Below the pieces are notes generated by a model, which saw only the letters and a program-made list of their open reading frames with translations, made no database searches and was not told where the DNA came from. A stretch of 64,000 nucleotides of DNA from an uncultured Gammaproteobacteria bacterium. Its GTDB lineage: Bacteria; Patescibacteriota; Microgenomatia; Levybacterales; GWA1-39-11. Shown here piece after piece: positions 1 to 49,186 of the stretch; position 1 is the first letter of the stretch, and the number at the start of each line of letters is the position of its first letter. The position numbers were made by a program, and so were the translations under genes. The DNA lies in assembly GCA_964504535.1 (NCBI GenBank), contig CAZDED010000003.1:6850-70849 (forward strand), in the 5' to 3' direction.

Positions 1-3000
1 GCTGGGTTTGTATCAGAAAGAATGATTGGGCTTGCATTTGAGAATGTATTTGTGTTGCTGAACACATTTGCTTGATTAAGGTATGCAACATTTGTAAGTG
101 TTCCTGCTGTGTTAATGTTCAACCCATTGAGTTGGATAGCAGTAATGGCGTTGAGAACGTCTGTCTGGACTGTGCCTGAAGCTGTGATGTTTGTTGCTCC
201 GGTTATTGCACCAGTATTTGTGATACCTCCTGTGTTGTTGTTTATACCTCCTGTAATGTTTGCTCCACCTGCAGTAGCTACAAAACCATTGGCAGCAGTT
301 ATTGTTCCGGTTCCGGTTGTTGTAAGATTGCCACTTGTTGTAAGATTCCCATTTTCGTTTATGGCAAGAGTAGCCGAACCACTTGATTGGATTTGCAAAG
401 CATTCTGAAGTGAGGCATTGGTGTCATTGATGACCAAAGCTGCACTTCCTGTTCCAGCGTTAGTTAAAGTGAACTGACGAGAGTTAAGGTTAGCAAGAGT
501 AAAGTCTATGTTGCCTTCATTGTCTGTTGCAGAAATTGTATTTCCTGACTCATAAGCATCTTGAAGGGTTACTGCATTTACATTTGTATTACAGGTAGAG
601 ATCTGGTCACTTCCATTTCTACAAAGAGCAGTTGTGCCATTAGTTCCAAGTGATGAAAGTTGGGTTAGATTGCTTAATATTATCTGTCCGGATCCATTTG
701 GAGTAAGGGTGAGATTTTCGTTTGTCCCTGTTGTGATATCTGTTGACACTCCATTGAATGTGAGAGTACCGGTTGTAGTAATCGCTCCTGATGCAACTGT
801 TCCAATATTTGTAAGGTTGCCTGATGAGTCGATTCTTGTTGTACCATTTGTTTGTACATTTGTTAATGCATTAACCGTTGCAACGCTCAAAGTTCCAACA
901 GTCCCATTATCAACTACTGTGAGAAGAGTATTTGGTGAACCATTTGAATCTGCAACAGTAAGGGTTCCCGCAGCATTTCCAGCACCTAGTGTAAGAATTG
1001 GATTTGTATTTGATAGAACAAGTGGAGAGGCAGATGAAAATGTATTGGTTGCAGTAAAGGTATTTGCCTGATTTTGGTACGCAACGTTTGAGAGAGTTCC
1101 TGCAGTATTAATGCTTGTTCCATTGAGTTGGATTGCTGTTATTGCATTTAGTATGTCTGTTTGGGTGGTTCCACTTGCAGTGATATTGGTGGCTCCGGTA
1201 ATAGCACCAGTATTTGTAACACCACCGTTATTATTGTTGATCCCTCCTGTTATGGACGCGCCACCGCTCGTAACAGTGAGCGCGCCCGCAACAGTTTGAC
1301 CCGTCGTGAAATTATTATCTTGACCTTTATATGCAACGTTAGAAAGAGTTCCTGTTGTATTTATGTTGGTGCCATTAAATAAGAAGCCGGCAGTCGCATT
1401 AACCGTTCCGGAAAGTGAAAGATTTCCGACGGTGCCTGCATCCGTTAATGTGAAGAGGGTATTTGCGTCACCATCATTAATTGTCAAAGTACTATCGACT
1501 CCGGCAGTACCAAGAATTGCCGTAGGTGCTGCATTAGTGAACGACAATGGCGATGCGCCAGAAAGAGTAACTGTTCCTGAAGCTGTAATATTGGTTGCGC
1601 CGGAAATTGCACCTGCGTTGGTGATGCCTCCTGTATTGTTGTTAATACCACCTGTTATTGATGCGCCACCGCTAGACACTGTCAAAAGACCGCCGATTGT
1701 TTGACCGACAGTGAAGTTATTGTTTTGTCCTTTGTAGGCTACATTTGAAAGAGTTCCTGTCGTGTTAATATTTGTTCCATTGAGTAAGAAACCTGAAACT
1801 GCATCAACTGTTCCTGAGATTGAAAGATTCCCAACCGTACCTGCATCTGTAAGGGTTAGAAGAGTATTTGGTGAACCTTCAGCGTCTTTAATGGTCAAAA
1901 CCCCATTATTTCCAACGGTAGCAAGAGTTATGATTGGTGAATTATCAGCAAATGTAACTGGGCTTGCATTGGAGAAGATATTATTTTGTGAGAATGTATT
2001 TTGTTGGTTTTGATATGCAACATTTGAAAGGGTGCCTGCAGTATTGATGTCTACTCCGTTGAGTTGGATCACTGAGGTTCCGTTAAGAGTTGCTCCTTGG
2101 ATAGTACCACTCGCAGTAATATTTGTGGCACCGGAGATGGCACCTGCATTGGTAATGCCCCCTGTATTATTGTTGATTCCTCCATTGATTGAAGCGCCAC
2201 CTGAACTTACCGTCAAAAGACCATTGATGGTTTGACCAACCGTGAAGTTATTATTTTGATTCTTATATGCAACATTTGAAAGAGTTCCTGCAGTATTTAC
2301 ATCAACACCATTTAATTGAAGAGAAGTGGTTGCGCTTATTGTCGAAACGGAAAGAGATCCACCATTGCCATAATCAGTCAAAGTTAAGAGAGTATTTGGA
2401 GATCCTTCAGCATCTCTAATCGACAAAACTCCATTTGTTCCAGCTGTAGCCAAGGTTATGATTGGCGAAGCATTCGATAGTGTAAGCGGAGAGGCAGAGG
2501 AGAGCGTAACTGTACTTGAAGCAGCAATCGTCGTAGCACCAGAGATAGCGCCAGTATTAGTAATGCCGCCAGTATTGTTGTTTATTCCTCCGGTAATTGA
2601 AGCACCACCGGTACTGACGGTCAAAAGTCCTCCGATTGTTTGACCAACGGTGAAGTTGTTGTTCTGATTCTTGTATGCAACATTTGAAAGAGTGCCTGCT
2701 GTGTTGATGTCTACTCCGTTGAGTTGGAAGGCAGAAACTGCGTTGATGATATCACCCTCTATTGTGCCTGTTGCTGTGATGTTTGTAGCGCCTGAAATTG
2801 CCCCTGCGTTGGTGATACCTCCCAAATTATTGTCAAGTCCTGCTGAAATACTTGCACCATTTACAGCTGTCAAAAGACCTGCAGATGTTATGGTTCCTGT
2901 CCCTGTAGTTGCGATATTTCCACTTGTAGTTATGTCGCCTAACTCATCAACGGTCAAAGTTGATGTGCCGTTTGATTTTACATTGATAGCAATTCCTCCT

Positions 3001-6000
3001 GTTCCGGCAGCAGTGTCGTTGAGGATCAGCGCGTTTGCTGTACCAGCATTGGTTAAGGTAAATGATGTTGGCGAACCAAGTCCACCCGCTAATGTAAATG
3101 CTATATTTCTTCCCGTCGTTGTAGTGATTGTGTTGCCATTGTCATATGCTGTCTGCAATGTTGCGGTTGCGGCATTACAAGAAGCGATTTGATTTGAAGC
3201 ATTCCGGCAGAGAGCTGTTGTTCCATTTGTTCCAAGGGTCGTAACTTGAGTAAGATTGCTAAGAATAATTTGCCCTGTTCCGTTTGGTGTAAGAGTGAGA
3301 TCTTCATTAGTTCCGGTTGTTATGTCGGTTGTAACCCCGTCAAATGTAAGAGTCCCGGTGGTAGTTATTGCTCCTGATGAGATTGTGCCAATATTTACTA
3401 GGTTGCCGGATGCATCGATCCTGTCAGTTCCTGATGTTTGGACTGATGTTGTTGCGTCTAACGTCCCACCCTGAATTGTTCCTGATGCAGTGATGTTAGT
3501 CGCTCCGGAAATTGCACCTGCGCTGGTGATACCTCCAGCGTTGTTATTGATTCCGCCGGTGATACTTGCACCACCTGATGAGACAGTAAGCAATCCTCCA
3601 ATTGTTTGAGCAGTTGAGAAGTTATTGTTTTGTCCTTTATAAGCAACATTTGAAAGAGTTCCTGTTGTATTGATGTTGGTGCCATTGAATTGGAGAGCTG
3701 TCGTTGCATTGATATTAGCAACAGTCAATGTGCCATTTGTTCCATTGTCAGTAAGTGTCAAAAGAGTGTTTGGAGATCCTTCAGCATCTTTTATAGTAAA
3801 TACACCGTTGTTCCCAGCGGTAGCAAGTGTAAGTGTGGGCGTATTGTTAGATAATGTCAGGGGGTTTGCGCTTGATAATGTGACAGTACCTGAAGCATCA
3901 ATAGTAGTTGCACCTGAGATTGCGCCTGCACTTGTTATCCCACCTGTATTATTGTTAATTCCCCCGGTTATTGAAGCGCCACCGGTGGTTACCGTCAACG
4001 CTCCTCCGATTGTTTGACCGACAGTAAAGTTATTATCTTGACCTTTGTAGGCTAGGTTTGAAAGTGTACCGGTTGTATTGATGCTTGTACCATTCAATAA
4101 AAATGCAGTTGTTGCATTGATATTAGCAACAGCAAGAGTTGCTGTTGTGCCATTGTCTGTAAGCGTTAGTAAGGTATTTGGAGAACCATTTGAATCCTTT
4201 ATCGTCAATGTCCCCGCAGCATTACCGGCTCCAAGAGTCACGATAGGATTAGTGTTTGAGAATGTAAGAGGACTTGCGCCTGACAAAGTAACTGTTCCTG
4301 ATGCGTCAATGGTGGTAGCGCCCGCAATTGCACCAGCAGCTGTAATTCCTCCAGTGTTATTAGCAATCCCTCCGGTTATGTTTGCTCCCCCGGCGCTAAT
4401 AGTAAGACCACCGGTTGAGATAGTTTGACCAACGGTAAAGGTGTTTGATTGATTTTGGTAAGCAACGTTTGTGAGAGTTCCTGCTGTATTGATATCGGTA
4501 CCAGCAAGTTGGATGACGCTTGTTGCATTGATTGTTGCACCTTGAATTGTGCCTGAAGCTGTGATGTTAGTAGCACCGGTAATAGCCCCGGTATTTGTTA
4601 TACCTCCCGTGTGATTATTTATTCCGCCCGTTATACTTGCGCCTCCGGCACTAATAGTAAGACCACCGGTTGAGATAGTTTGACCAACGGTAAAGGTGTT
4701 TGATTGATTTTGGTAAGCAACGTTTGTAAGCGTTCCTGCTGTATTGATGTTTGCACCATTTAATTGAAGGGCAGAGAGAGCATTTACAGTTCCGACACTA
4801 AGAGTTGCATCGGTTCCATTGTCGACCAAGGTAAGTAATGTGTTTGGTGAGCCAGCTGAATCTTTCACCGACAGAGTACCGTTGGCATCCCCAGCTCCTA
4901 AAGTTATATCCGGTGCTGAATTTGTAAGTGTTACAGGGGCAGCAGATGAGAGAGTTACTGTCCCTGAAGCACCGATAGTTGTAGCACCAGAGATAGCACC
5001 GGCGTTTGTTATACCACCTGAGTTGTTATTAATACCTCCAGAAATGTTTGCACCACCAGCTGTAACCGTTACACCACCAGTTGTTACGGTCAATAACCCT
5101 CCGATTGTTTGTCCAACTGTAAAGTTGTTGTTTTGTCCTTTGTAAGCAACGTTTGTGAGAGTTCCTGTGGTGTTAATGTCTGTTCCACCCAATGTAAATC
5201 CGGTGCTAGCATTAACCGTTCCAACAGATAAGGTACCGACTGTCCCATTATCGGTAAGTGTCAAAAGTGTATTTGGTGACCCTTCAGCATCAGAAATAGT
5301 CAAAGTCCCATCAGTTCCTGCAGTTGCCAATCGGATGTTAGGGTTTGCATTTGAGAGGGTAAGAGGAGAGACCCCAGTCAATGTCGCAGTACCACTTGCA
5401 GTTAAATTGGTAATACCTGTGATAGATCCAGTATTTATGATTCCTCCGGAATTATTGTTGATTCCACCTTTAAGGTATGCACCACCCGAATTGACAGTAA
5501 GAGCTCCGGCTGATGTGATTGTTCCGGTGCCGGTTGTCGTTATGTTTCCACTTGTTGATACATTTCCGAGCTCAGAAATGGTCAGCTTCGAAACACCTGC
5601 AGACTGAACATCAAGAGCTATTCCACCCGTTCCTGCATTTGTATCATTGATGACAAATGCATTTGCACTTCCTGCATTTGTAAGTGTGAATTGGGTCGTA
5701 AGACCGGTATCTAGCGTGAAGTCGATGTTGCGACCAGTAGTTGTAACAATCGTATTTCCAGCGTCATACGCCTGTTGCAAAGTTACAGCTGTTGCATTGG
5801 CTGCACAAGAGGCAAGCTGATTGCTCGCATTGCGACAAACTGCAGTGTATCCGGTCATTGCAGAAAGGGTGGCGACTTGGACATAGTTGTTGAGAAGTAT
5901 CTCGCCTGTCCCGTTTGGTGCAAGAGTAAGATCCTCGTTTGTTCCTGTGGTAATATCAGTTGCAACTCCATTAAATGTTAGAACTCCGCTTGTTGTGATA

Positions 6001-18000: not shown

Positions 18001-21000
18001 TCAGTTGCTGATATTGTATTTCCTGCTTCGTATGCAAGTTGAAGTGAAATGTTTGCAGCGTTTGCCGGACATTCGGTTATTTCGTTACTTATGTCATCAC
18101 GGCAAAGGGTAGTTGCACTTAGTCCAGCAGTCGGAAGATTAAGTAACTTGGTTATATTTGAAAGGACAATCTGACCGGTCCCATCTGGGGTAATCGTAAG
18201 ATCTTGGTTAGAAACCGTAGTGATATCTGTTCCAACCCCATTAAAGGTTAACGACCCGGTAGCTGTAATTGCACCCGTTGATAAGGAGCTGCTTGTGACA
18301 GAACCCGTTGTTATAAGATTTCCATTCTCAGAAATCGTGAGAGTTGCAGAACCGCTGCTTTGGATAGACAAAGCATTTTGGATAGAAGCATTCGTGTCAT
18401 TTATGACAAATGCTGCCGATCCTGTCCCGGCATTGGTAAGTAAGAATTGGCGGGATGAAAGATCTGCAAGAGTAAAGTCAATGTTGCCTTCACCATCTGT
18501 TGCACTAATAGTGTTGCCTGCTTCATAAGCAAGTTGCAGTGAAATATTTGCAGCGTTTGCCGGACATTCCGTTATTTGATGGGACGAATCGTCACGGCAT
18601 AGAGTCGTTGCAGCAACTCCTGCAACAGGCAGATTTTCAAGACGCGCTATATTGGAGAGCACAATTTGACCGGTTCCATTTGGAGTGAGCGTAAGATCTT
18701 CATTACTGACGGTGATTATGTCATTGGCAGCTCCTGAAAATACAAGCCCTGACGCCCCAATTGTTTTGTTAGTTAATGTCTGTGTTTGTGCGGCAAATAT
18801 AAAAGTGTCGTCAAACGTCAACGCAGGAAGTGTTGCAATTCGTGGCGCACCTGGGGCAGGTGAATTTATGGTCGTAGTGTTGATGGTTCCGAGAGATATT
18901 TGGTTGGTAGTTGCAGCAAGACCGAGGTTTCCAGCATAAGAAAGGGTTGCCGCATTGTCTCCGGCATTATTAACAAATGCCAACTGATATGTTGGAGCGG
19001 TAGTTAGAATCTGATTTTGAAGACTAAAAGTAAGATTGTTTGAGGAAGCTCCATTCCAATATGATCCCTGAAGTGACAAAAGATTTGAGTTGTTAAGAGT
19101 CGCACCGCTCGTTGATGTAGCAAGCCTCAATAATGACAATGTATCGGTGCCAGTTTGATCTCCCACATTAAATGCAGTCAAAGAGGTGATTGTCGTACCG
19201 TCATCCGTAAAATTAGAATCTCCGATATTTGATCCCGTTACAGTAAATTTAGCTAGTCTATTTAGCGTACCGGCACCACCGACAACGCCACCAGCACCTG
19301 CACAGTTTCCGACAGTAAGACAAACTGTTCCATCATAGTCTGGAATACTAATAGTCCGCAGCGTACCTGTTGTAATCTGACTTAGATCAAACAAGAATTG
19401 CTTCGTATTGTCTCCGCTATTCTGGAACGTGATCGAGTTGTCGGTCAGCAATTTGTTAGTCAATGTCTGACTTTGATTGGCAAATATGAATGTGTCATTT
19501 GCGGTAAGACCGGGAATCGTTGCGATCCTTGCAGCAGCTGGCGCTACGGAATTTATCGTAGTGGTATTAGTTGTTCCCAATACTAACTGGTTTGTTACAG
19601 CTTGTGATGTCAAAACTCCTGCGGTAGTTAGATTTCCATTTTCGTTGACAGTAAGAGTTGTTGATCCATTTGATTGGACTTCAATTCCATTTTGGTTTGC
19701 AGCATTCGTGTCATTTATAACAAGCGCCGATGACGCTGTACCTGCGTTTGTAAGAGTCAATGCCCGAGATGAAAGAGCTGCAAGAGTAAGTGAAATGTCA
19801 CCAAATGCATCTGTTGCAGAAATTGTGTTTCCAGCTTCGTATGCGAGTTGGAGTGAAATATTTGCAGCGTTTGCTGGACATTCCGTTATTTGATGGGACG
19901 AATTATCACGACAAAGAGTCGTTGCAGCAACACCAGAAACAGGCAGATTTTCAAGACGTGTAATGTTTGAAAGGACTATTTGCCCTGTCCCATCAGGGGT
20001 AATTGTGAAGTCTTCATTTGACAGTGTTGAAATATCGGTCGCAGCTCCTAAGAACACAAGCCCAGTTGTTCCAATCGTTTTATTTGTGAGCGTTTGAGTC
20101 TGTTGTGCAAAAATAAATGTATCATCAACAGCTAGGGCAGGTAAAGTAGCGACACGTGGAGCAGCGGGAGCAATGGAACTTATTGTTGTCGTATTTCCAG
20201 AACCCAGTACAACTTGATTTGTTGCTGCTTGGGCAGTCAACGTTGTCGCTGAAAGGATTGATCCTGTACCGGTTGTTAATATGTTTCCTGCGGTTGAAAG
20301 TAATCCTGTCTCATTTATGGTAAGCGTCGCAGAACCACTACTTTGGATGACCAACGAATTATTGACTGATCCGCTGGTATCGTTGATTACAAAAGCACTA
20401 GCTGTTCCTACATTTGTGAGGAGTAAGGAGGTGGATAGACCAGATCCCAATGTAAAGTCGATATTTCTATTTGCAGATGTAGTTAATGTATTTCCTGAAT
20501 CATAGGCAAGTTGCAATGAAACATTGCTGGCATTTGCCGGACATTGCGTTATTTCGTTGCTAATATTGTCACGGCAAAGGGTAGTTGCAGCAACACCTGC
20601 AGATGGAAGACTGCCCAGTCTTACTGTGTTAGAAAGAACGATTTGCCCTATACCTGAAGCGGAAAGCGTGAGATCTTCGTTACTTGCGGTCGTGATATCT
20701 GTTGTTGCTCCTGAGAATATAAGTCCGGTAGACCCGATTGTCTTATTGCTTAATGTCTGAGTCTCATTTGCAAATACGAATGTATCAGATGCGCTAAGAG
20801 CAGGAATGGTTGCTGTTCTAGGAGCAGACTGTGAATTGGCATTTATAACTAACGTATTCCCGGCAGCACCAAGAGTAAGTTGGTTACTTGTATTTGAAAG
20901 AGACTGGGATGCGAATGTCGGCGAAGATGTCGCCGCAATATCTTGAGGGGTAGAAAGAACGATTGTGCCACTACCGTTCACAACATTTACCTGATTTGAT

Positions 21001-23837
21001 GTACCTGAAATATAATTAAGACTAAGACCCGTGCCATTGCCTATTAATATCTGCCCAGGTAATGCCCCAGACGTATCAAGACCTGTACCTCCACGAGCAG
21101 GAGTGAGTTGCGCGATAGTTGAAAATACTCCAGATGAATTATTGATAACAACTCCATCTGTTGCAAAGCTTGAAACAGTCAATGCTCCATTTGCTGAGAG
21201 ATTTGTGAACGCACCGGTTGAAGGAGTGGTAGTACCGATAGCAGTACTGTTAATTCCCGTTGCTGTAGTGTTGAAATTGCCGGATGTGATGAGTAAATTA
21301 TTTACTCCAGTTGAAATACTTGAGCCCGATAGGCCTGACAAATTAAGAGTACCTGCAGTAGCTGTAAGATTGAGAGTTCCTGTTGTTACTGTAAAACCAT
21401 TTGAAGCAGTGAGTGTTCCGGCTGACGTGATGGTGCCCGCACCTGTTGTCAATATATTTCCTGTTGTCGAAAGTATTCCATTCTCATTTATGGTGAGAGT
21501 AGTAACACCACCTGATTGCACCGTAAGAGCATTTTGAATAGCAGCATTTGTATCGTTAATAACAAGTGCCGATGAAGCAGTACCTGCATTTGTTAGTGTT
21601 AATGCACGTGCACTATCTGAAGCCAATGTGAAATCGATATTTCCCAAAGAGTCAGAAGCACTTATTGTATTGCCAGAGTTATACGCAAGCTGCAAAGAAA
21701 TTCCACCAGCATTTGCAGGACATTGTGTTATCTCATTGCTGATGTTGTCACGGCAAAGAGTAGTAGCACTTACTCCTGGCGCTGGAAGAGTGAGAAGACG
21801 AGTTATATTTGAAAGCACGATCTGCCCGGTGCCATTTGGCGAAATGGTGAAGTCCTCATTTGCTAACGTAGAGATATCAACCGCCGCACCAGAAAAAGTA
21901 AGTCCTGTTGCGCCTATTGTTTTATTTGTTAGTGTTTGTGTTTCGTTGGCAAAAACGAAAGTATCATCAGAAGACAAAGCAGGAAGGGTTGCAATCCGTG
22001 ATGCAGAGGGTGCAGGAGAGGTGATGGTCGTTGTATTGCCTGATCCTAGGACTATTTGGTTTGTTGCGGCTTGAGCTGTCAATGTGGTTGCCGAGACGAT
22101 AGTCCCAGCACCGGTTGTCAGAATATTTCCAGATGTTGATAGGGTGTCCCCTGCAGTTGTCGGCGTGAGGGTTGTAGTTCCATTATTTCTGGTGAAAAAA
22201 CCTACTGTTCCTGAAGTATCAGTTGTTGTAATAGTACCAGAACATACAAGATTGCCAGTAGCGTCATCAACAGTGCATCCCGTTGAACCTGATCCTCCCG
22301 CCAAAGAAACATCCCCATCAGACGCAATTAGGAGCGCTTGCGCTCCTGAGGTTGTATTATATATCGTGAACTGCGATGTATCCGCGTTCAGAGAAAAGTC
22401 CGACTCACCCACATCACTATCCACAAAAAATACGGATGGATCGGAGTTGGCGATAGTTATATCTCCTCCTGCTGTAGTTGTACCGGTGAGATAAAGATTT
22501 CTGTAGCGCCTTAGAGCTGAACCAAGATCATATGTGTCATCAGCACTCGGACCGATACTTCCTGCAACTTCAAGTCTGAAAGGATTTCCATCAGCATCAA
22601 GATCATCAGGAGCAACGCCGATACCAACTCGTCCATTTGGAACCGTAACAAGCCCGGCACCAATCGTTGCGGTATCAAGCGCTGAGCCGATGTTGATGAT
22701 GTCTGCAATCGTATTGTCGGTTGCGATATTTATTACATTTCCAGATGTGCCGGTACCGACATTGATGATTTTTGCATTATTACCCGTTCCGAGATTGACT
22801 GTTCCTGTAGTGCCACTATCTAGTGTCAATGAACTGGCAGCAGCCGAAAGCACAGATCCGGCTCCACTAAAACTCAGGGTTGTTCCTCCAATGTTGAAAC
22901 TATTTGTAACACCATTAACAGACGTTAATGTCGATGCAAGCTGGATATTTGCCTCTCCGGCAGGACTCTCAGTAACGTCAAAATCACCACCAAGAAAATC
23001 AAGCGCATTAATCACATTTGAAACCACCACATCATTCTCTTTGATGGTTGCAACAGCAAATGAAGTGATGTTTGTCCATGAAGGAACACCGGTGCCATCT
23101 ACAGTTAGAAATTGCCCTGTCGTACCGATAGGCAACCCAGCGAGGACGTCAGCGGAAGCAGCATACAAAAGATCACCGGTTGCATATGTTGAAAGCCCGG
23201 TACCGCCGACACTAACACTGATAAGCCCGGTTTTGATTGCTTCTCCAGCAACAGATCCACCTGACCCGATGGTAATTGTATTTGCAATATCTGGATCCGT
23301 GAGACATGAAGAACAGTGACCGCGTGCAACAAGAGTTTCAAGCGTCGTTATGTCAGATATTGTGAGATCGGTTATCTGTATACCATCCCCCGCAACAAGC
23401 TCAATATCCCCAGTCTGACCCTGAAAAGAAGTGACTCCACTAGCATCAACTGAGATCGTAGGAGATTGAGGATCACCACTCAACGTTACGTTTTCACCGG
23501 CAGTAAGACTATAAACAACATTTGGCGCAGTGATATTTCCCTTAAACAAGCTTGTACCTTCAACCAACAGGTTCTTTCTAACAGTTAGATTTTCGCGGCT
23601 AACAACTGGAAGTCCGAAAATAACGCTTCCCGTAAGCTTAAGCTTGCTTGTCTGAGCTCCCAGAACTTCAGGTGTTTCGGTAGCAACTTCAGTCGTTTGT
23701 GCTATTTTTGGGGCTGAATTCTTAATGAGCTGTTGGCGGGCAAATACTCCTCCAACAAACAAAAGAGAGGCGAGTGCGCCTAGAAAAAGTGTTCTTTTAC
23801 TTGGTTTGAGGTAAGCAAATTGAAAAAATAATCTCAT
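1..23837 (-). CDS. Giant repetitive secreted or surface-anchored protein. The start codon is inside the window and the 3' end runs past window position 1, so at least about 7,945 codons are visible.
   Basis: ATG at 23837 on the minus strand (cat at 23835-23837 on plus). I hand-translated about 5 kb downstream of the start and found no stop. Spot checks at 60-120 and 12810-12900 are in the same frame, with codons starting at plus positions that are 0 mod 3. The N-terminus MRLFFQFAYLKPSKRTLFLGALASLLFVGGVFA looks like a signal/anchor peptide. The body has degenerate repeats such as NVAYKNQNNNFTVGQTIGG...GGINNNTGGITNTGAITGATNITASGT, recurring Cys-pair motifs (LCRDNISNEITQCPANA) and AIGTTTPSTG motifs. 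Every plus-strand ORF in the track between 109 and 23319 is in one frame and is hydrophobic V/P/I/L-rich, which is what antisense of this gene would give. Confidence 0.8.
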   Translation of the reverse strand, partial: MRLFFQFAYLKPSKRTLFLGALASLLFVGGVFARQQLIKNSAPKIAQTTEVATETPEVLGAQTSKLKLTGSVIFGLPVVSRENLTVRKNLLVEGTSLFKGNITAPNVVYSLTAGENVTLSGDPQSPTISVDASGVTSFQGQTGDIELVAGDGIQITDLTISDITTLETLVARGHCSSCLTDPDIANTITIGSGGSVAGEAIKTGLISVSVGGTGLSTYATGDLLYAASADVLAGLPIGTTGQFLTVDGTGVPSWTNITSFAVATIKENDVVVSNVINALDFLGGDFDVTESPAGEANIQLASTLTSVNGVTNSFNIGGTTLSFSGAGSVLSAAASSLTLDSGTTGTVNLGTGNNAKIINVGTGTSGNVINIATDNTIADIINIGSALDTATIGAGLVTVPNGRVGIGVAPDDLDADGNPFRLEVAGSIGPSADDTYDLGSALRRYRNLYLTGTTTAGGDITIANSDPSVFFVDSDVGESDFSLNADTSQFTIYNTTSGAQALLIASDGDVSLAGGSGSTGCTVDDATGNLVCSGTITTTDTSGTVGFFTRNNGTTTLTPTTAGDTLSTSGNILTTGAGTIVSATTLTAQAATNQIVLGSGNTTTITSPAPSASRIATLPALSSDDTFVFANETQTLTNKTIGATGLTFSGAAVDISTLANEDFTISPNGTGQIVLSNITRLLTLPAPGVSATTLCRDNISNEITQCPANAGGISLQLAYNSGNTISASDSLGNIDFTLASDSARALTLTNAGTASSALVINDTNAAIQNALTVQSGGVTTLTINENGILSTTGNILTTGAGTITSAGTLTASNGFTVTTGTLNLTATAGTLNLSGLSGSSISTGVNNLLITSGNFNTTATGINSTAIGTTTPSTGAFTNLSANGALTVSSFATDGVVINNSSGVFSTIAQLTPARGGTGLDTSGALPGQILIGNGTGLSLNYISGTSNQVNVVNGSGTIVLSTPQDIAATSSPTFASQSLSNTSNQLTLGAAGNTLVINANSQSAPRTATIPALSASDTFVFANETQTLSNKTIGSTGLIFSGATTDITTASNEDLTLSASGIGQIVLSNTVRLGSLPSAGVAATTLCRDNISNEITQCPANASNVSLQLAYDSGNTLTTSANRNIDFTLGSGLSTSLLLTNVGTASAFVINDTSGSVNNSLVIQSSGSATLTINETGLLSTAGNILTTGTGSILSATTLTAQAATNQVVLGSGNTTTISSIAPAAPRVATLPALAVDDTFIFAQQTQTLTNKTIGTTGLVFLGAATDISTLSNEDFTITPDGTGQIVLSNITRLENLPVSGVAATTLCRDNSSHQITECPANAANISLQLAYEAGNTISATDAFGDISLTLAALSSRALTLTNAGTASSALVINDTNAANQNGIEVQSNGSTTLTVNENGNLTTAGVLTSQAVTNQLVLGTTNTTTINSVAPAAARIATIPGLTANDTFIFANQSQTLTNKLLTDNSITFQNSGDNTKQFLFDLSQITTGTLRTISIPDYDGTVCLTVGNCAGAGGVVGGAGTLNRLAKFTVTGSNIGDSNFTDDGTTITSLTAFNVGDQTGTDTLSLLRLATSTSGATLNNSNLLSLQGSYWNGASSNNLTFSLQNQILTTAPTYQLAFVNNAGDNAATLSYAGNLGLAATTNQISLGTINTTTINSPAPGAPRIATLPALTFDDTFIFAAQTQTLTNKTIGASGLVFSGAANDIITVSNEDLTLTPNGTGQIVLSNIARLENLPVAGVAATTLCRDDSSHQITECPANAANISLQLAYEAGNTISATDGEGNIDFTLADLSSRQFLLTNAGTGSAAFVINDTNASIQNALSIQSSGSATLTISENGNLITTGSVTSSSLSTGAITATGSLTFNGVGTDITTVSNQDLTITPDGTGQIVLSNITKLLNLPTAGLSATTLCRDDISNEITECPANAANISLQLAYEAGNTISATDSEGNIDFTLADLSSRQFLLTNAGTGSAAFVINDTNASVQDVFQAQSSGAATLTISENGNLTSIGNLSTSGNILTTGTGTITSAGLLTASNGITVTTGAVNVTGTSGALNLSGLSASSLQFGGNNLLIGAANLSVTATGINSTAIGATTPSTAVFTGLTANTSVTITPFNTAGVIINNASGVLATEQQLAPLRGGTGVDASAAPNGALLIGNGSGFSLNTITGTSNQVLVTNGSGTIALSLPQDIAATSSPTFASLNLTNSTNQIVLGTTNTTTITSIAPVASRFATIPALTADDTFVFANQTQTLSNKSIGSTGLIFSGAATDITTNSNEDLTLSPDGTGQIVLNTITRIPNLSGTVGFSVVCRNGLNEFSVCSSNALNVTLQQAYNSGNTIVANDLHGNIDFTLADLSSRQFLLTNAGTGSAAFVINDTNASVQNALAIQSSGSATLTISENGNLSTIGNLLTTSGGTITSNGLLTASNGLTVTAGAVNITGTSGAIVLTGLGASTFDAGANALTFTSSNFTTTATGINNTAIGVTTPSTGNFTTLTTTGNASFSGNLTLAGAPRSIQTTDFNTLTIGGNTTGLVQIAGNTDITGLLSVQGAATFNNNISQVGTGTFSTGTGAVSLNGNTSVTGSNTFTVGTGATTLGSTLDVAGLATFNGGLTISTGNTLLASGAAVFAPSTGNNVVFNTSATERIQINGLQTQNGNTLCLDVSNNLAFCNGAPFGLQAAYNTGNTITTTPGRNLAFTLGQDQTTSLTLTNLGTASAFIINDNNANTNTSLEIQSSGSATLTINELGNLTTSGNIATTGTGTITSNALLTASNGLTVTTGAVSLTGTSGLLNLTGLSSSTLQFGGNDLLVGAANINVTATGINGTVIGATTPAAATFTNLTTTGAASISGNLTLAGAPRSIQTTEFNTLTIGGDTTGEITISPLNGVGNLNINALTILNGNTSVTGANTFTVGTGLTTLGGALTVNGISTFNNNITQVGAYTFSTGTGNVSLNGNTSVTGSNTFSVGTGATTLGSTLDVAGISTFNGNVTVTNGNSFDASGSAVFTPSNGNNIVFNTSATERIQINGLQTQNGNTLCLDTSFNLVYCNGAPFGLQAAYNTGNTITTTEDRNIAFTLGLDLGTSLTLENQGTASAFLINDTSGSVNTALEIQSSGSATLTINELGNLTTSGNIATTGTGAITSAGLLTASNGLTLTTGAINLTATSGVLSLSGLSASSINAGVNNLLITSGNFTATATGINSTAIGATTPSTGAFTTLSSTGTTNLGTSGASDVNIATTGTGNVAIGNATGTFAVTSNGGLNVSTLGALTGVISLDTIGVTATDLTFAGVGTISATGANSLTLDTGTTGDINIGIGNSAKTIYIGTGAGGNVINIATNDTLADIVNIGSALDTINLLGEVTANDFTSSGVTITGGTINGTSVGATVRSTGAFTTLAANSTVLIENLTTSSGTALCIDSFDNIIKCSIGSGTGTLQSSYNNGNTILTNDGRNVAITLAPGLNLPTSFTIENQSTASAFIVNDTSAGGSGTFIDLQSNGASTLKISEAGVIYLAGNNTSDISTLVGGTDITVNPASSTVAATGGNLRLIAGTTTAGGSTGGSVTINAGAGASANGVINLGTLTTGNTVNIGTDNTSPDVINIGSSTDTVSIAGAVTANNFSSSNAVITGGSIDNTPIGNTTRSSGKFTTLAANSTVTIENLVTVVGSPLCTNGDDEVVLCDVGSSAGTLQSSYDNGNTILTTSGRNIDFTLASGLNAATSLTLTNEGTASAFIINDNNAAPNQVALEIQSGGNRRLTIDESGNASTSGYISSSNSIQTIGSGTITSANGLFVTAGGASINGGINNNTGGITNTGAITGATSITASGTIQGDILNAVSSIQTNGTQRVDSSGNLVNIGTVASGAITTTGTLTFSGVSTDITTVSNQDLTLLANGSGQIVLNDTVRIPVLAGVQGFTVLCQNVTNELSQCDPTAFGVTLQSAYNGGNTILTTAGKNIDFTLDSGLTTQFRLSNAGSANAFVINDTNVGSGGIAFEIQSASSSALTITELGTISTSGNIATTGTGTITSAGALTVSAGGASITGGINNNNGGITNTGAITGATNITASGTTTSDTINAITEFQLNGTSINVGGTLSNVAYLDRANVFSNTNTFSSAAPLTLSNSAPDITLATAGNNGVLRIRDAEGSPNTLLTLTDNGTVGNLAITGTINAVLGLQLNGTNINTTGTLTNVAYKGQNNNFTVGQTIGGALTVTTGGASITGGINNNNGGITNTGAITGATNITASGTTQTDILNAITAIQLNGVNINTGGTLTNVAYLDTANTFTLGQTINSGGITVVAGGASITGGINNNTGGITNTGAIAGATTIAASGVVTLSGASPLTLSNTTPIITLGAGNAAGTLTIKDSNGTPNTLLTLVDNGTVATLTVGTINATSALQLNGANINTANTLTNVAYKNQSNTFTAGQTITTGGLAISAGGLDVTGGINNNTGGITSTGAIAGATTIDASGVVTLSNASPLTLSDSAPVITLATAGTNAVLTINDAEGSPNTLLTLTDTGTVGNLAVTGSINAGTGILLNGTNINTTGTLTNVAYKGQNNNFTVGQTIGGALTVTTGGASITGGINNNNGGITNTGAITGATNITASGTVQGDIINAVTALQLNGTDINTAGILTNVAYKNQSNTFTAGQIISSGGLSVTGGINNNNGGITNTGSVGSATTIDASGLVTLSNSTPLALTATTSAITLAAAGTNGTLTIRDAEGSPNTLLTLTDTGTVGNLSVSGTINAVGGYLLNGTNINTTGTLSNVAYKGQNNNFTVGQTIGGALTVTIGGASITGGINNNSGGITSTGAISGATTIDASGVVTLSGASPLTLSNAAPVVTLATIGVDGVLTITDAQGSPNTLLTLTDNGTNATLAVANINATTGFLLNGTNINVGTTLSNVAYLDQANIFAIGQTINTGGLTINAGGANITGGINNQNGGITNTGAITGATNITASGTIQGATINATSVFQLNGTSINTTGTLTNVAYKGQNNNFTAAQNIAGTVTITGAATDITTGSNEDLTLVANGTGVINLNDTVQIPTLASPDGSTALCRNAGNYLAACAPNSNGVTLQLAYDAGNTILTSSGRNIDFTLYDEDTDTGTATSFTVMNAGSAPAFVINDVRTGSSGVAFEIQSASSSALTISELGTITTSGNIATTGTGTITSAGALTVSAGGASITGGINNNTGGITNAGAISGATTIGASGLVTLSAASPLTFSNTNPIVTLGAGNANGVLTIKDSAGSPNTLLTLTDAGTVGNLSVTGTINAGTGYLLNGTNINTAGTLSNVAYLNQANIFTAGQTITTGGLAIQAGGADITGGINNNTGGITNTGAISGATNITASGTTQTDILNAITAIQLNGTNINTAGTLSNVAYKNQSNTFTAAQIISAGGLSVVGGINNNNGGIINTASISGATTIDASGVVTLSGANPLALTNGTPNISLATAGVDGVLTIKDAEGSPNTLLTLTDNGTVGNLSVTGTINAAGGFLLGGTNINTTGTLTNVAYKGQDNNFTVGQTIGGLLTVTTGGASITGGINNNTGGITNAGAISGATTIGASGLVTLSAASPLTFSNTNPIVTLGAANANGTLTIKDSNGSPNTLLTLTDTGSTGNLSVTGSVNAGTTLQIGGVDINTAGTLTNVAYQNQSNTFTALQTITTGGLTIQAGGADITGGINNNTGGITNTGAIAGATNITASGTIQGATINATSVFQLNGTDINTTGTLSNVAYKGQNNNFTVGQTIGGLLTVTTGGADITGGIVNNAGGITNTGAIAGATTIAASGTVTLSSGSPLTLSNTTPIITIGAGNSAGVLTIKDSNGAPNTLLTLTDNGTIATLAVANINATTAFLLNGTNINTTGTLSNVAYKGQDNNFTVGQTIGGLLTVTTGGANISGGIDNNAGGITNTGAITGATNITASGTIQGATLNATNDIQTNGVTRLDVIGNLTNINTISSGAITTSGVLTFNGVATDITTGTNEDLTLAPNGTGEILLNNYVQVATLSAMTGYTAVCRNASNQLASCAANATAVTLQQAYDAGNTIVTTTGRNIDFTLDTGLTTQFTLTNAGSANAFVINDTNAGTGGIALDVQSAGVSKLTISELGNVSTSGNITTTGTGTITSAGALTVNSGGAYLKGGINNNSGGIINTGSITGITNLTASGTATLTGVSPLTLSNANPNIRLATAGTDGTLTISDAEGSPNTLLTLTDNGTVGTLSVGTVNASTGFTLGGTDINTTGTLTNVAYKGQNNNFTVGQTIGGLLTVTTGGVTVTAGGANISGGINNNSGGITNAGAISGATTIGASGTVTLSSAAPVTLTNSAPDITLGAGDANGTLSVKDSAGSPNTLLTLVDNGTDATLSVGTVNALSALQLNGANINTAGTLTNVAYQNQSNTFTVGQTISTGGLTISAGGASITGGINNHTGGITNTGAITGATNITASGTIQGATINATSVIQLAGTDINTAGTLTNVAYQNQSNTFTVGQTISTGGLTISAGGANITGGIANNTGGITAAGAIAGATTIDASGTVTLSGASPLTFSNTNPIVTLGAGNAAGTLTIKDSNGSPNTLLTLTDNGTTATLAVANINATTAFLLNGTSINTTGTLSNLAYKGQDNNFTVGQTIGGALTVTTGGASITGGINNNTGGITSAGAISGATTIDASGTVTLSSANPLTLSNNTPTLTLATAGNNGVFTIKDAEGSPNTLLTLTDNGTNGTLTVANINATTALQFNGTNINTTGTLSNVAYKGQNNNFSTAQTIGGLLTVSSGGASITGGINNNAGGITSAGAISGATNITASGTIQGGTLDATTSVQTSGTDRIDASGNLVNIGTISSGAITTTGTLTFDGVTTDITTGTNEDLTLTPNGTGQIILSNLTQVTTLGTNGTTALCRNASNQIASCNAATATLQTAYDNGNTITTTTGRNIAFTLAGGLGSPTSFTLTNAGTANALILNDTAAGTGGIAINVKSNGTSTLTVDELGDITTSGNIATTGTGTITSAGLLTAVNGASISAGLDNNLGGITNAGAISGATNITATGTIEGDIINAVSAFQLNGVDINTAGTLSNVAYKNQNNNFTVGQTIGGLLTVSTGGASITGGINNNTGGITNTGAISGATTIAASSTVTLSSASPLTLSNASPIITLATAGTNGVLSIRDAEGSPNTLLTLTDYGNGGSLSVSTISATTSLQLNGVDVNTAGTLSNVAYKNQNNNFTVGQTINGLLTVSSGGASINGGINNNTGGITNAGAISGATNITASGTIQGATLNGTSVIQLNGVDINTAGTLSNVAYQNQQNTFSQNNIFSNASPVTFADNSPIITLATVGNNGVLTIKDAEGSPNTLLTLTDAGTVGNLSISGTVDAVSGFLLNGTNINTTGTLSNVAYKGQNNNFTVGQTIGGLLTVSSGGASITGGINNNTGGITNAGAISGATNITASGTVTLSGASPLSFTNAAPTAILGTAGVDSTLTINDGDANTLFTLTDAGTVGNLSLSGTVNATAGFLFNGTNINTTGTLSNVAYKGQDNNFTTGQTVAGALTVTSGGASITGGINNNNGGVTNTGAITGATNITASGTTQTDILNAITAIQLNGTSINTAGTLSNVAYQNQANTFTATNTFSSASPLVLSNTNPILTLGAGNAAGTLTVADSNGSPNTLLTVVDNGTVGTLSVATVNALTNVQTNGTTRIDSSGNLTNIGTVASGAITTTGTLTFNGVSTDITTGTNENLTLTPNGSGQIILSNLTQLSSLGTNGTTALCRNGSDQISTCNTNVNAVTLQDAYESGNTISATDNEGNIDFTLANLNSRQFTLTNAGTGSAALVINDTNASLQNALQIQSSGSATLAINENGNLTTSGNLTTTGTGTITAANGFVATAGGANITGGINNNTGGITNTGAITGATNITASGTVQTDVLNAITAIQLNGLNINTAGTLTNVAYLNQANVFSNTNTFSNASPIILSDTNP

Positions 23838-24269
23838 AGCCTCAAAAAGAAGGCTAACACTGTTAAGAAATGACTGAAAAGAACTTATAGTTTTTGGGGA
23901 ATTTGAAATAATAGTTGCCCGTGCCTCGCCAGCCTTGACTAGCTTTGTCAGATCCTCTTCCTGGTATTGGAGTTCTCCTTTTTCGTCGACAATTGGGGTT
24001 AAAGAATGGAGGTCGCAGAGGTACACAAGGGTTTCAACTGAAACACCAAGCTTACGAGCTGCCTGTTTTAATGTTAATAATTTCATTGACGAGTTTTGAC
24101 TATCGCGTATATATAAAACGGGTGTATATCTAATGTATCTATTTTTGCTAAAACTAGTCAACGTACGTTAATGATAGGTACTGTAACAAACTGTACTGTT
24201 TTTTATAAAAAAAATTTTTGCTTGTGAAAGGACACAAAAAAACGAAAAAAAGGCTGATATAGAAAGTAA

Positions 24270-24470
24270 TAGAATGAATCAGTGGACTGGAACCATATCA
24301 AATATTAAAAAACATGGTATATTTCACGAAAACTTTTCACGAAAATTAATCTCATAGTTATTGGAAAACAAATTTAGAAAAATCTTTTTTTTAAAAATGC
24401 AGAAAAAAGTATTTCATTTTTAAAAATTTTCACAAATTGTTTTCACGGAGTACTGTATTTTGAGGCTAAA
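24270..24470 (-). promoter_or_regulatory. AT-rich leader upstream of the giant gene with four TTTCAC(G/A) direct repeats at 24322-24345 and 24427-24449. Possible transcription-factor sites or promoter elements.
   Basis: There are 735 bp of non-coding AT-rich sequence between the 3' end of atpC (24573) and the giant-gene start (23837). The repeated motifs are atttcacgaaaa, ttttcacgaaaa, ttttcacaaa and ttttcacgga. Confidence 0.25.
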
Positions 24471-24572
24471 TATATTTATGCGTAAACAAATAAATTGATA
24501 TAACAGTAAAAACTATATTTATGATTATAAAAATAGTACGCGTAATAAATTAGCTTGATTTGAAGCTCCAAA

Positions 24573-24848
24573 CTATTTGGTGTCCATGAAGAGAACTTCG
24601 ATTCCTAAGAAGATATTGGCACTGTCCTGCTTAACTTTCATGACAGCTTGCTCAAATTTTAGCTCTTTTACCTTTTCATGGTTATCGTAAAGAACTAACT
24701 CTTGGCGAATGATAGAGATAAAGTTAGCGTGCATAGGATAGATATCGAAAGGACCAACCTCGTTAAATGAGCTTATCCTTTCAACCTCACCTTCAAAAAT
24801 GATATTTTCTGTGTCTCTTATTTTGACTTTGAACTTCTTGTCGGCCAT
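24573..24848 (-). CDS. atpC: F-type ATP synthase epsilon subunit (short; N-terminal beta-sandwich domain)
   Basis: 91 aa, MADKKFKVKIRDTENIIFEGEVERISSFNEVGPFDIYPMHANFISII. It is in epsilon-like register and lies immediately downstream of the beta subunit, as in canonical atp operons. Confidence 0.7.
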   Translation of the reverse strand: MADKKFKVKIRDTENIIFEGEVERISSFNEVGPFDIYPMHANFISIIRQELVLYDNHEKVKELKFEQAVMKVKQDSANIFLGIEVLFMDTK

Positions 24849-24857
24849 AGGATTTTT

Positions 24858-27319
<2,462 letters not shown>

Positions 27320-27322
27320 AAG

Positions 27323-28975: not shown

Positions 28976-29514
28976 TATTGTTGTTTTGGTGGTAGTGTCA
29001 CCATGCCTGATGACACAAGCATTTCGCTAGTGACTTTGGTTAAAGTTGGTCGTATAGAAAAATCCAGATATTTACCACCAGATTTGATAGCAGCTCCAGC
29101 AACAAGTGACTTATCCACACTCACATCAAAAAGTACCTGCTTGTTAACATTGATAACAAACCATCTTGAAAATGCCTGAAGCGTCTCCTCCTTAGGCTCA
29201 AATGCAAGAATCAGAGAAATAATAGGAAGGCTTGTGATTTTTACTTGGATCTTTTCTATAAAATCTTTGATGGCTAGTCGAGACTCTGGATTTACATTGT
29301 TGTTGCGAAGAAGGGTCATGAAAGCATCTTTTTTCTTGATACCAAAATTATCCAGAAGTGCGGCCTCAGGATTGAATTGAGTCGCAAATATTTTTGAGGA
29401 AATAACAGTTAGACGATTTGCAAAATCTTCAGCCTGTGCTTTTGTGTTAAATAAATCTGATAGGTCAAGTGTATCCATATTAGTCAAATAATCCGTCTTT
29501 TTTGGCTCTTTCAA
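28975..29514 (-). CDS. atpH: F-type ATP synthase delta (OSCP) subunit
   Basis: 179 aa. The C-terminal VAGAAIKSGGKYLDFSIRPTL resembles the OSCP C-terminus. There is an ATGA start/stop overlap with atpA, and the gene sits between b and alpha. Confidence 0.6.
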   Translation of the reverse strand: MKEPKKTDYLTNMDTLDLSDLFNTKAQAEDFANRLTVISSKIFATQFNPEAALLDNFGIKKKDAFMTLLRNNNVNPESRLAIKDFIEKIQVKITSLPIISLILAFEPKEETLQAFSRWFVINVNKQVLFDVSVDKSLVAGAAIKSGGKYLDFSIRPTLTKVTSEMLVSSGMVTLPPKQQ

Positions 29515-47480: not shown

Positions 47481-47539
47481 ATCAATAATACGGTCAAAGC
47501 AGAGAAGATGTCAAGCTACGACCTGCTATGCAGGTTACG

Positions 47540-48612: not shown

Positions 48613-48613
48613 A

Positions 48614-49159: not shown

Positions 49160-49186
49160 AACAATATATTAACTAATAAATTTTAG

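Follow-up and report, generated by a model that had tools for sequence, protein, structure and literature searches.

The stretch of DNA considered here, called the window below, is the 64,000 nucleotides (nt) found at positions 6,850 to 70,849 of contig CAZDED010000003.1, in assembly GCA_964504535.1, and one end of it is occupied by a single minus-strand open reading frame (ORF) that codes for a giant repetitive protein. The interpretation that we favour, by analogy with known proteins and with somewhat better than even confidence, is that this protein is a surface fibre resembling a phage tail fibre: anchored in the membrane with its N-terminus inside the cell, probably trimeric, and used for contact or adhesion. 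A MerR-type DNA-binding domain at the N-terminus, a single membrane helix next to it, and an ectodomain built of two nested families of repeats are the elements of this interpretation. The first two of these recur in an unnamed family of Patescibacteria proteins, mostly from the Microgenomates group, to which we assign the gene on sequence grounds, and several complete members of this family carry the chaperone domain of phage fibres near their C-terminus.

One gene, longer than the window

An earlier reading of the window, made from its sequence only, proposed a frame running without interruption from an ATG at position 23837 to the window edge. Translation confirms it: from 23837 down to position 1 there are 7,945 codons and no stop. 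Since a random sequence of the same composition would contain a stop roughly every 20 codons, chance is excluded as the origin of the open frame. The proposed start, on the other hand, has to be moved. The frame stays open for 83 further codons, up to an ATG at 24086 that has an in-frame stop just upstream, and both the public gene call and the conserved N-termini of orthologs place the actual start there. With this origin, residue i of the protein lies at window coordinate 24086 - 3(i - 1).

That the gene extends beyond the window, as the sequence-only reading had also claimed, is borne out by the ENA metagenome contig ERZ4216102 NODE_223 (64,334 nt), which is 100% identical to the window over positions 14573-34848 (20.3 kb) and carries the gene 9.8 kb further. 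The gene table of this contig gives a start equivalent to 24086 and a product of 11,295 amino acids (aa) that reaches the contig end: the figure is thus a lower bound, for a gene of at least 33.9 kb whose end is not reached. The Logan assembly of a separate run, SRR12487035, is also 100% identical to the window, over positions 18531-25469. The exact 46-mer at positions 1-46 of the window has no match in the genome or metagenome contig collections.

Repetitive genes invite assembly errors. Here, the best internal repeat pairs have 71-89% DNA identity, and a collapsed or duplicated assembly is unlikely because the repeats have diverged. The longest exact repeat (Table 1) may stem from a recent gene conversion, and it is only there that a short-read assembly might miscount a unit.

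The closest ortholog among species representatives, L007, can be compared over 3,623 aligned codons, with 91.5% identity. The differences fall at codon positions 1, 2 and 3 in numbers 330, 142 and 1844; of the codons that differ, 1,673 do so synonymously and 308 non-synonymously (84% synonymous). In sequence terms, this is the pattern of a translated gene under purifying selection. The sole large difference is an extra module of 410 aa in L007, at aa 2927 (window ~15.3 kb), the two genes being otherwise colinear: the module copy number varies between close relatives. We thus take the minus-strand ORF to be one genuine gene, and consider artefact and pseudogene to be ruled out by the independent assemblies, the divergence of the DNA repeats and the third-position bias relative to the ortholog. 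Plus-strand ORFs of 150-261 aa also occur in the gene region, as antisense by-products.

From helix-turn-helix to repeat array

The sequence-only reading, with its start at 23837, had the protein open with a signal or anchor peptide. Once the start is moved to 24086, this hydrophobic segment becomes internal and a helix-turn-helix (HTH) comes first. In the N-terminal region, Pfam reports MerR_1 (PF13411) at 21.6 bits, a score equal to the cut-off (E 2.3e-4), and HTH_17 (PF12728) at 21.5 bits; the N-termini of orthologs match MerR at E 3e-11 to 3.7e-12, and PHROGs gives weak matches to MerR-like and transposase HTH families. Residues 1-55 of an AlphaFold2 (AF2) model follow the beta-alpha-alpha-beta-beta-alpha pattern expected for a MerR-type HTH, and the top Foldseek matches in the PDB are all MerR-type DNA-binding domains: NmlR, RacA, BldC, BmrR, SoxR, MtaN and Tn916 Xis. 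The match to BldC has a root-mean-square deviation of 2.3 Å over 50 residues and a template-modelling score, TM(target), of 0.7; the library E-values, 0.04-0.3, are modest because the query was a 700-aa model of low confidence. In 38 related loci, the long ORF likewise begins with a detectable HTH. The first 60 or so residues are thus a winged HTH of the MerR type. Neither the antiparallel coiled-coil dimerisation helix found at the C-terminus of MerR proteins nor their effector-binding region is present: what follows the HTH is a linker, a transmembrane (TM) helix and the ectodomain.

Apart from this helix, at aa 98-117, the 8,028 aa encoded in the window contain no hydrophobic segment (19-aa windows, Kyte-Doolittle mean of at least 1.6). 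Because no signal peptide precedes the HTH, the HTH is predicted to be cytoplasmic and the helix to act as a signal-anchor. Cleavage after the helix is unlikely, since the AXA-like site found there, VFA/RQ, is not conserved in orthologs. A start at 23837 with a signal peptide cleaved at this site was considered and rejected: the HTH upstream is conserved in frame in orthologs. The earlier proposal of a cell-surface protein nevertheless fits, because of the single N-terminal signal-anchor and of an ectodomain that has few charges and bears Cys pairs. In composition, the window protein has 18.2% T, 13.3% G, 11.1% N, 10.7% A and 9.2% S, only 6.4% charged residues, 4 Met and 2 Trp.

Table 1. Features of the giant gene and of the spacer upstream of it, in window coordinates.
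Feature	Position	Strand	Basis or remark
Giant ORF	1..24086	-	8,028 codons inside the window, 3' end beyond it; the identical ENA contig gives at least 11,295 aa
MerR-type winged HTH, aa 3-50	23937..24080	-	Pfam, Foldseek, orthologs
Variable, poorly conserved linker, aa 51-97 (47 aa)	23796..23936	-	Includes Met84; alignment A3, comparison with L007
Single TM helix, predicted signal-anchor, aa 98-117, RTLFLGALASLLFVGGVFAR	23736..23795	-	Hydropathy; predicted helix 97-124
Conserved membrane-proximal head, aa 140-420	22827..23669	-	Invariant columns of alignment A3
Short repeat block GTGNNAKIINVGTGTSGNVINIATDNTIADIINIGSALDT	22647..22790	-	Second copy near aa 3390-3435, window ~13.78-13.92 kb
RVGIGVAPDD...LEVAGSIGP...YDLGS..RRYRNLYL block, aa 483-545	22452..22640	-	Conserved in orthologs P0002, P0004, P0005, P0043
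N-terminal module region, aa 640-2560	16407..22169	-	Six Cys-loop modules, TQTLTNKTIG and GGTGLD blocks
Cys-loop LQxAYxxGNT module 1 (first Cys aa 778)	21348..21905	-	Alignment A1
Cys-loop module 2 (Cys 1171)	20169..20726	-	
Cys-loop module 3 (Cys 1392)	19506..20063	-	
Cys-loop module 4 (Cys 1830)	18192..18749	-	
Cys-loop module 5 (Cys 1995)	17697..18254	-	
Cys-loop module 6 (Cys 2392)	16506..17063	-	
Middle region, aa 2561-3945	12252..16406	-	Four further Cys-loop modules, second flavour; second copy of short repeat
Cys-loop module 7 (Cys 2741)	15459..16016	-	
Cys-loop module 8 (Cys 3118)	14328..14885	-	
Cys-loop module 9 (Cys 3495)	13197..13754	-	
Cys-loop module 10 (Cys 3748)	12438..12995	-	
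Cys-loop module 11 (Cys 3996)	11694..12251	-	Opens distal super-repeat 1
Array of 27 NVAY-delimited units	3..11573	-	Unit sizes 84-85, 93 or 131-143 aa
Distal super-repeat 1, 1,132 aa (Cys 3996 to Cys 5128)	8706..12101	-	
Distal super-repeat 2, 956 aa	5838..8705	-	Cys-loop module 12 at 8298-8855
Distal super-repeat 3, 876 aa	3210..5837	-	Cys-loop module 13 at 5430-5987
Distal super-repeat 4, 862 aa	624..3209	-	Cys-loop module 14 at 2802-3359
Cys-loop module 15	216..773	-	
Longest exact DNA repeat, ~180 nt	10071..10250 and 11148..11327		Copies 1,077 nt apart; only one other exact repeat, ~77 nt
Only sigma-70-like promoter match in the atpC-ORF spacer	24132..24161	-	Not above chance

The ectodomain begins with a membrane-proximal head, the most conserved part of the family, recognised by the motifs TSKLKLTG, ITAPN[VI]xY, RGxCxxC and GGTG..Y..GD..YA...P.W; the N-terminal alignment A3, of 10 members, has 63 invariant columns. 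Beyond it, the region at aa 433-545 contains the short repeat pattern GTGNNAK..INIATDNT..INIGSALDT. The motifs quoted in the sequence-only reading are all present: GNVINIATNDTLADIVNIGSALDT at aa 3411, RVGIGVAPDD at aa 486, and GINSTAIG in 5 copies.

The rest of the visible protein has a nested repeat architecture, as had been proposed and as a self-BLAST dot-plot in 40-aa windows makes visible. The Cys pairs lie where they were said to lie, with first Cys codons at 21755, 20576, 19913, 18599, 18104 and 16913 on the N-terminal side and at 12101, 8705, 5837, 3209 and 623 on the distal side. The modules that carry them are more numerous and less regular than the earlier description suggested: they number 15 instead of about 11, the four additional ones standing in the middle region (15866, 14735, 13604 and 12845), and the N-terminal ones, described as uniform units of about 400 aa, are in fact spaced by 393, 221, 438, 165 and 397 aa. 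These Cys-loop modules share 21 invariant columns, including C-x9-10-C, LQ..Y..GNT, TL, N...A...ND, S and L..E.G.

From aa 3946 to aa 8028 the protein consists of four super-repeats, each of which opens with a Cys-loop module and continues with units delimited by the motif NVAY. Here again the nesting had been seen correctly, and the sizes then given, 900-1,100 aa with sub-repeats of about 50 aa, give way to those of Table 1. Each NVAY unit is assembled from blocks of some 50-60 aa: block A, GQTIGG..GGASITGGINNNTGGITNTGAIxGATxIxASG; block B, VTLSxASPLTLSN..ITLA..G.LTIKDAEGSPNTLLTLTDNGT; and a linker, LNGTNINTTGTLSNVAY. The units of 84-85 aa consist of block A and the linker, those of 93 aa of block B and the linker, and those of 131-143 aa of both blocks and the linker.

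Scans of the whole ectodomain, in 1,500-aa pieces, against Pfam, NCBIfam and PHROGs found no meaningful family. The Pfam names C3_CUB2, OB_YrrC and AnkUBD (and KH_KRR1 on relatives) were dismissed as short partial matches to biased repeats, and DUF4251 was not assigned: its cut-off is reached only when matches are summed, 6 of the 15 modules matching singly with a best E of 1.3e-4. Sequence-profile searches of the PDB with both repeat alignments gave nothing but a spurious match to a carbohydrate-binding module, at E 0.038.

Structure prediction of single chains was hardly more informative. The AF2 monomer of the Cys-loop module, computed from the alignment of 15 sequences, has a predicted local distance difference test (pLDDT) score of 66.6 and almost no secondary structure, and Foldseek found zero matches with it; the monomer of the N-terminal 700 aa, from an alignment of 10 sequences, has a pLDDT of 40.1, only the HTH and the TM helix being interpretable. 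Such poor monomer models would fit an obligate oligomer, and could equally reflect shallow alignments.

A family with tail-fibre modules

The arrangement of a MerR HTH, a TM helix and the same head recurs in the N-terminal homologs P0002, P0004, P0005, P0043 and P0071. With patterns drawn from the N-terminal alignment and a scan of one genome per GTDB species, the family is found at 64 loci, whose informative titles name Levybacteria, Amesbacteria, Daviesbacteria, Curtissbacteria, Roizmanbacteria and Woesebacteria, with a few 'Saccharimonadales'. The placement of Levyibacteriota in the Microgenomates group of Patescibacteria was checked; we take Amesbacteria, Daviesbacteria, Curtissbacteria, Roizmanbacteria and Woesebacteria to belong to the same group. 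The titles of the related loci thus agree with the small-genome bacterium of the sequence-only reading. We take the source to be a Patescibacteria bacterium, probably from Microgenomates and Levybacteria-like. Saccharibacteria, a label that some matches bear, were considered as the source and set aside, most of the named related loci being from lineages of the Microgenomates group. Many related metagenome-assembled genomes (MAGs) bear the title 'uncultured Gammaproteobacteria', evidently a placeholder: in gene content and relatives they are Patescibacteria. A literature search found no paper describing the HTH-TM-fibre family. NCBI names two of the orthologs, P0005 and P0043, 'MerR family transcriptional regulator', a name that rests on the 50-aa HTH alone.

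The ORF of nearly every close ortholog is longer than the 12 kb of sequence covered at each locus, which makes these proteins longer than 4,000 aa. No other member found approaches the window gene, with its 11,295 aa or more, in length. Its two repeat families are distributed differently: Cys-loop modules occur in 1-13 copies in the visible part of 21 related loci, whereas a hidden Markov model of the NVAY unit (alignment A2) has 43 matches in the window gene, 14 in locus L029 and none at any other family locus. Among 1.84 billion representative proteins, the Cys-loop profile matches 163 clusters (E <= 1e-3).

Members whose C-terminus is available show what may lie beyond the window. Complete members all end in a common module of about 120 aa, ...GF.V.L..P...D..F.W(W/L)IVN, seen in L031, L034, L049, L053, L056, L058, L061, L067 and L068. 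In six members (L031, L049, L053, L058, L060 and L061) the domain Peptidase_S74 ('chaperone of endosialidase', PF13884) is found some 370-440 aa before the end, and L031, of 3,730 aa, unites a MerR HTH at 30-66 and Peptidase_S74 at 3291-3345, with the motif SDRRLKKDI, in one polypeptide. In endosialidases and other phage fibres, S74 is an intramolecular chaperone that nucleates the folding of the trimer and then cleaves itself off. The terminal module of the family lies downstream of S74, where nothing functional would be expected in a phage fibre.

Fibre proteins can also be reached from the ectodomain. Eight proteins that carry PF13884 (P0018, P0027, P0050, P0053, P0054, P0056, P0058 and P0059) match the window protein at E 6e-30 to 1e-4, and P0201 is another PF13884 protein with shared modules. 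The short repeat block GTGNNAKIINVGTGTSGNVINIATDNTIADIINIGSALDT recurs with 60-70% identity in P0018 and P0027, which are Patescibacteria proteins named 'tail fiber domain-containing' and in which a Cys loop stands directly before the S74 cleavage motif; the linker LNGTSINTTGTLSNVAYKGQDNNFT is common to P0047, P0051 and P0054. Block A and the linker of the NVAY unit are common to viral or fibre-like ORFs: block A, as GGITNAGAIxGATTI, occurs in 22 IMG/VR viral contigs, among them giant-virus MAGs and phage ORFs that start with MAYKFQ or MSYKFQ, and L096, a viral contig of 122 kb, has an ORF of 1,170 aa with the GGTG...W motif and a TLQxAYxxGNTIT module. The family resemblance to tail fibres suggested by the sequence-only reading is thus upheld, the connection being with uncultivated fibre proteins and not, as far as sequence comparison tells, with any characterised phage. 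A longer form of block A, SGGITNAGAIxGATTIDGSGDLTMGTITMTGF, makes up long tandem arrays in ORFs of giant-virus MAGs (L076, L078) and of phages (L077, L082, L088): the repeat spans very different viruses as well as Patescibacteria, and appears to have no Pfam model.

The surroundings of the gene are those of a chromosome. Upstream, in the same orientation and past an AT-rich spacer of 487 nt in which no terminator was found, come atpC, atpD, atpG, atpA, atpH and a b-like gene. This adjacency of the fibre gene and the atp operon is conserved in essentially all related loci: in L007-L030, L037 and L039 the genes atpH-A-G-D-C immediately precede the fibre gene on the same strand, and in more distant loci they are adjacent but divergent. 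Beyond the atp genes lie YibE/F, a 276-aa protein, GH130, a class A penicillin-binding protein (PBP1), NUDIX, tyrosyl-tRNA synthetase (TyrRS), RecG, RNase III and TrmD, and farther on a complete type IV pilus cluster (45577-58507) with PilM, at least five prepilin-like genes, PilB, PilT and PilC. No tRNA, Rfam family or phage gene was found in the window.

Two of these neighbours deserve a description. The ATP synthase operon (24573-30220, minus strand) codes for b-like, delta, alpha, gamma, beta and epsilon subunits, and Pfam recognises no gene for an a or c subunit in it or next to it. The 276-aa protein (32680-33510, minus strand), a homolog of which adjoins the atp operon and the fibre gene at almost every one of the 64 related loci, consists of a signal peptide, an extracytoplasmic part of about 200 aa and a C-terminal hairpin of two helices, without a Pfam match. 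All eight PDB sequence matches of the hairpin are c subunits of F-ATPases, albeit weak ones (E 0.03-0.9), and an Ala aligns with the position of their ion-binding Glu. Embedded among the pilin genes there is also a gene for a TMEM260/PMT_2-like protein O-mannosyltransferase (51073-53097), which hints at glycosylated pilins and perhaps at a glycosylated Thr/Ser-rich fibre.

The fibre reading, its alternatives and known systems

Assuming that the protein is indeed an anchored trimeric fibre, its assembly could proceed as follows. The helix at aa 98-117 would serve as a Sec signal-anchor, keeping the HTH in the cytoplasm while the remaining 11,000 or more residues are exported. A C-terminal chaperone domain, beyond the window, would nucleate a homotrimer as in phage fibres, after which the chains would zip up into a beta-structured fibre, with three helices holding it in the membrane. 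The long tail fibre of T4 has, as a rough figure, about 2,500 aa per 145 nm; scaled in this way, the fibre would measure roughly half a micrometre, more than the width of the cell. The distal NVAY array, lineage-specific and variable in copy number, would form the outer end, and the fibre would allow the cell to grasp other cells or surfaces at a distance. The cytoplasmic HTH, whose nearest structural neighbours include regulators as well as the chromosome anchor RacA, would either tie the base of the fibre to DNA or report the state of the fibre.

Several observations weigh against this reading. The S74 domain was not found in the 8,028 aa of the window protein, whose 3' end is outside the window, and both S74 and trimerisation are extrapolated to the window gene from distant members with 31% N-terminal identity; in two complete members, L034 and L068, no S74 is detectable, although the HTH and the terminal module are there. 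The AF2 monomer models give no support for a triple beta-helix. A tblastn search of 50,697 GenBank phage genomes with three ectodomain segments found no match, and neither did searches of PHROGs and of PDB sequences with the ectodomain. Finally, strong purifying selection and a position at a housekeeping locus are atypical of the fast-evolving adhesins that recognise hosts.

The same anchored ectodomain could be a monomeric beta-solenoid exoprotein, like adhesins of the filamentous haemagglutinin (FhaB) type, instead of a trimeric fibre. The periodicity of 7-8 residues of Gly, Ile, Thr and Asn in block A (GGASITGGINNNTGGITNTGAI) does look solenoid-like, one of ten NVAY units matches Fil_haemagg weakly and below threshold (E 0.007), and FhaB domains are present in other giant Patescibacteria proteins (PMC11809585). 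We nevertheless think this unlikely, if deserving of attention: AF2 usually does well on monomeric solenoids, and here its pLDDT was 67 with the Cys module and 40 with the N-terminal 700 aa, the NVAY array lying outside the modelled parts; Pfam finds neither a TPS domain nor a significant haemagglutinin repeat; and the S74 chaperone of family members is specific to trimers.

A role as a constitutive envelope structure (a coat, spacer, sheath or tether) in place of an adhesin specific for a host or prey seems to us unlikely to the same degree. The conserved position beside the ATP synthase operon across many Microgenomates lineages, the strong purifying selection in a family present in 64 species representatives, and the name 'S-layer family protein' that NCBI gives to a distant homolog, P0048, all speak for it. 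Against these stand the lack of any SLH, other S-layer or wall-binding domain in Pfam and NCBIfam scans, a module number that varies between close relatives and a lineage-specific distal array, as expected of an interaction surface, and the oddity of building a coat from single-pass anchors with fibres of about 0.5 µm.

The fibre reading admits an extension that we put forward as a long shot: a mechanical or contact relay, in which binding or pulling at the distal end of a trimeric fibre of about half a micrometre would be transmitted to the chromosome through the MerR/RacA-like domain fused to its membrane root, or in which the base would tether the nucleoid at the site of host contact. The transmission could work by conformational change or by a Notch-like regulated release of the HTH. 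To our knowledge no contact relay of this kind has been described in bacteria. In either form, attachment would act directly on gene expression or on the positioning of DNA, in an ultrasmall cell with few classical regulators, and the invariant linkage to the ATP synthase operon would be a sign that energy metabolism and attachment are regulated together.

Signalling could, conversely, be the primary function, the protein being a membrane-tethered transcription factor of the MerR type with a giant ectodomain as its sensor. A MerR-type HTH conserved in 38 related loci, always on the cytoplasmic side of one TM helix, is what this would predict, and orthologs are publicly annotated as 'MerR family transcriptional regulator'. 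It is improbable all the same, considering that the dimerisation helix and effector domain are absent, that an ectodomain of more than 11,000 aa far exceeds the needs of any known sensor, that non-regulatory DNA anchors, RacA for one, are among its closest matches in structure, and that no candidate operator or regulated neighbour was identified.

Modules held in common with S74-bearing fibre proteins and with ORFs of viral contigs raise the question of a prophage, a tailocin or another virus-derived tail-fibre gene sitting in the chromosome. This is very improbable: the gene stands among housekeeping genes (the atp operon, PBP, TyrRS, RecG, RNase III, TrmD) and a type IV pilus cluster, without phage genes; the position is conserved across lineages; the HTH, the TM anchor and the size are unlike those of virion fibres; and the ectodomain has no match in PHROGs or in GenBank phages. 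A mis-joined repeat array or a decaying pseudogene is, lastly, hardly credible. The gene is highly repetitive, and the 180-nt exact repeat (10071, 11148) could let an assembly gain or lose one 1,077-nt unit. Yet identity among the remaining repeats is no more than 71-89%, the three independent assemblies match at 100% wherever they overlap the window, and 24 kb contain no stop, with 84% of the codons that differ from the ortholog being synonymous.

Patescibacteria genomes are typically of about 1 Mb, so that a gene of at least 33.9 kb would fill a few percent of such a genome. Given the strong purifying selection and the locus conserved across many Microgenomates lineages, the gene must matter to the life of these uncultivated, host-dependent cells. 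The family defined here, with its HTH, TM helix, tail-fibre-like shaft and S74 chaperone, indicates that the public label 'MerR family transcriptional regulator' is a mislabel, and adds two repeat families without a Pfam model, the Cys-loop module and the NVAY unit. It also raises the questions of what ultrasmall bacteria use to contact and hold their partners, of whether the assembly chemistry of viral tail fibres was taken over by cells for their own surface, and of why there is a DNA-binding domain at the root of a surface fibre. In Saccharibacteria, transposon sequencing has found type IV pili and several unrelated adhesins to be essential for epibiotic growth (PMC10633639), which by analogy makes an attachment role plausible for the fibre protein.

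Very long proteins are rare in Patescibacteria. A survey of the group counted only 149 proteins of more than 4,000 aa among 2.1 million from NCBI, and singled out as remarkable a 6,025-aa protein with an FhaB domain, presumed to be an adhesin (PMC11809585). The giant-gene survey of West-Roberts et al. concerns Omnitrophota; it mentions neither tail fibres nor MerR, nor Saccharibacteria or Patescibacteria by name, its sole mention of the Candidate Phyla Radiation being a remark on predation by Absconditabacteria (bioRxiv 10.1101/2023.11.21.568195). The giant putative adhesins of these two studies, that of Patescibacterium danicum and those of Omnitrophota, share with the window protein an extreme length, a repetitive ectodomain, a presumed role between cells and an ultrasmall bearer. 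In contrast to them, the window protein has no FhaB, DUF2341, Ig, FN3 or RTX domain, its repeat families are different, and its HTH signal-anchor is unlike anything they contain.

Among classical adhesins the resemblance is slighter. The sequence-only reading had likened the protein to trimeric adhesins as well as to tail fibres, and this half of the comparison finds no support as regards trimeric autotransporters: the head, stalk and beta-barrel domains of the YadA type have no Pfam or NCBIfam match in the 8,028 aa, nor does any other Pfam family of adhesins match there, and the anchor is N-terminal, through a TM helix. Adhesins of the Ig, RTX or BAP type (LapA, SiiE, Bap) are no closer, no Big, cadherin, VCBS, RTX or T1SS match being found in the window protein.

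With the minimal MerR domains of RacA from B. subtilis and BldC from Streptomyces, the protein shares the winged-HTH fold and its sequence signature; unlike them, it lacks a dimerisation coiled-coil or effector domain and has its HTH, whose DNA binding is predicted, fused to a TM helix and a giant ectodomain. Its nearest relatives are the members of its own family, such as L031 (3,730 aa), L034 from Daviesbacteria (3,392 aa) and P0071 (3,646 aa), which have the same HTH, TM helix, head and position at the atp operon. Close orthologs also have its Cys-loop modules, while the NVAY array is otherwise found only in L029.

A further comparison is with the tail-fibre proteins that carry PF13884, such as the K1F endosialidase and pb1, the L-shaped tail fibre of T5. 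Proteins with this domain share with the window protein the pattern GTGNNAK..INIATDNT..IGSALD, the Cys loop G..LC.D.S.N.L...C and LNGTSINTTGTLSNVAYKGQDNNFT. Where they would have a domain for attachment to the virion, the window protein has an N-terminal TM helix and a cytoplasmic HTH; it is 5-20 times longer, and is encoded on a chromosome in a conserved housekeeping locus. An S74 domain is known from its relatives, its own C-terminus being outside the sequence read. The window gene thus belongs to a known kind, that of giant surface fibres or adhesins and of cellular tail-fibre-like proteins, and is distinguished within it by an HTH signal-anchor, by two repeat families not described before and by a size that is extreme for its phylum.

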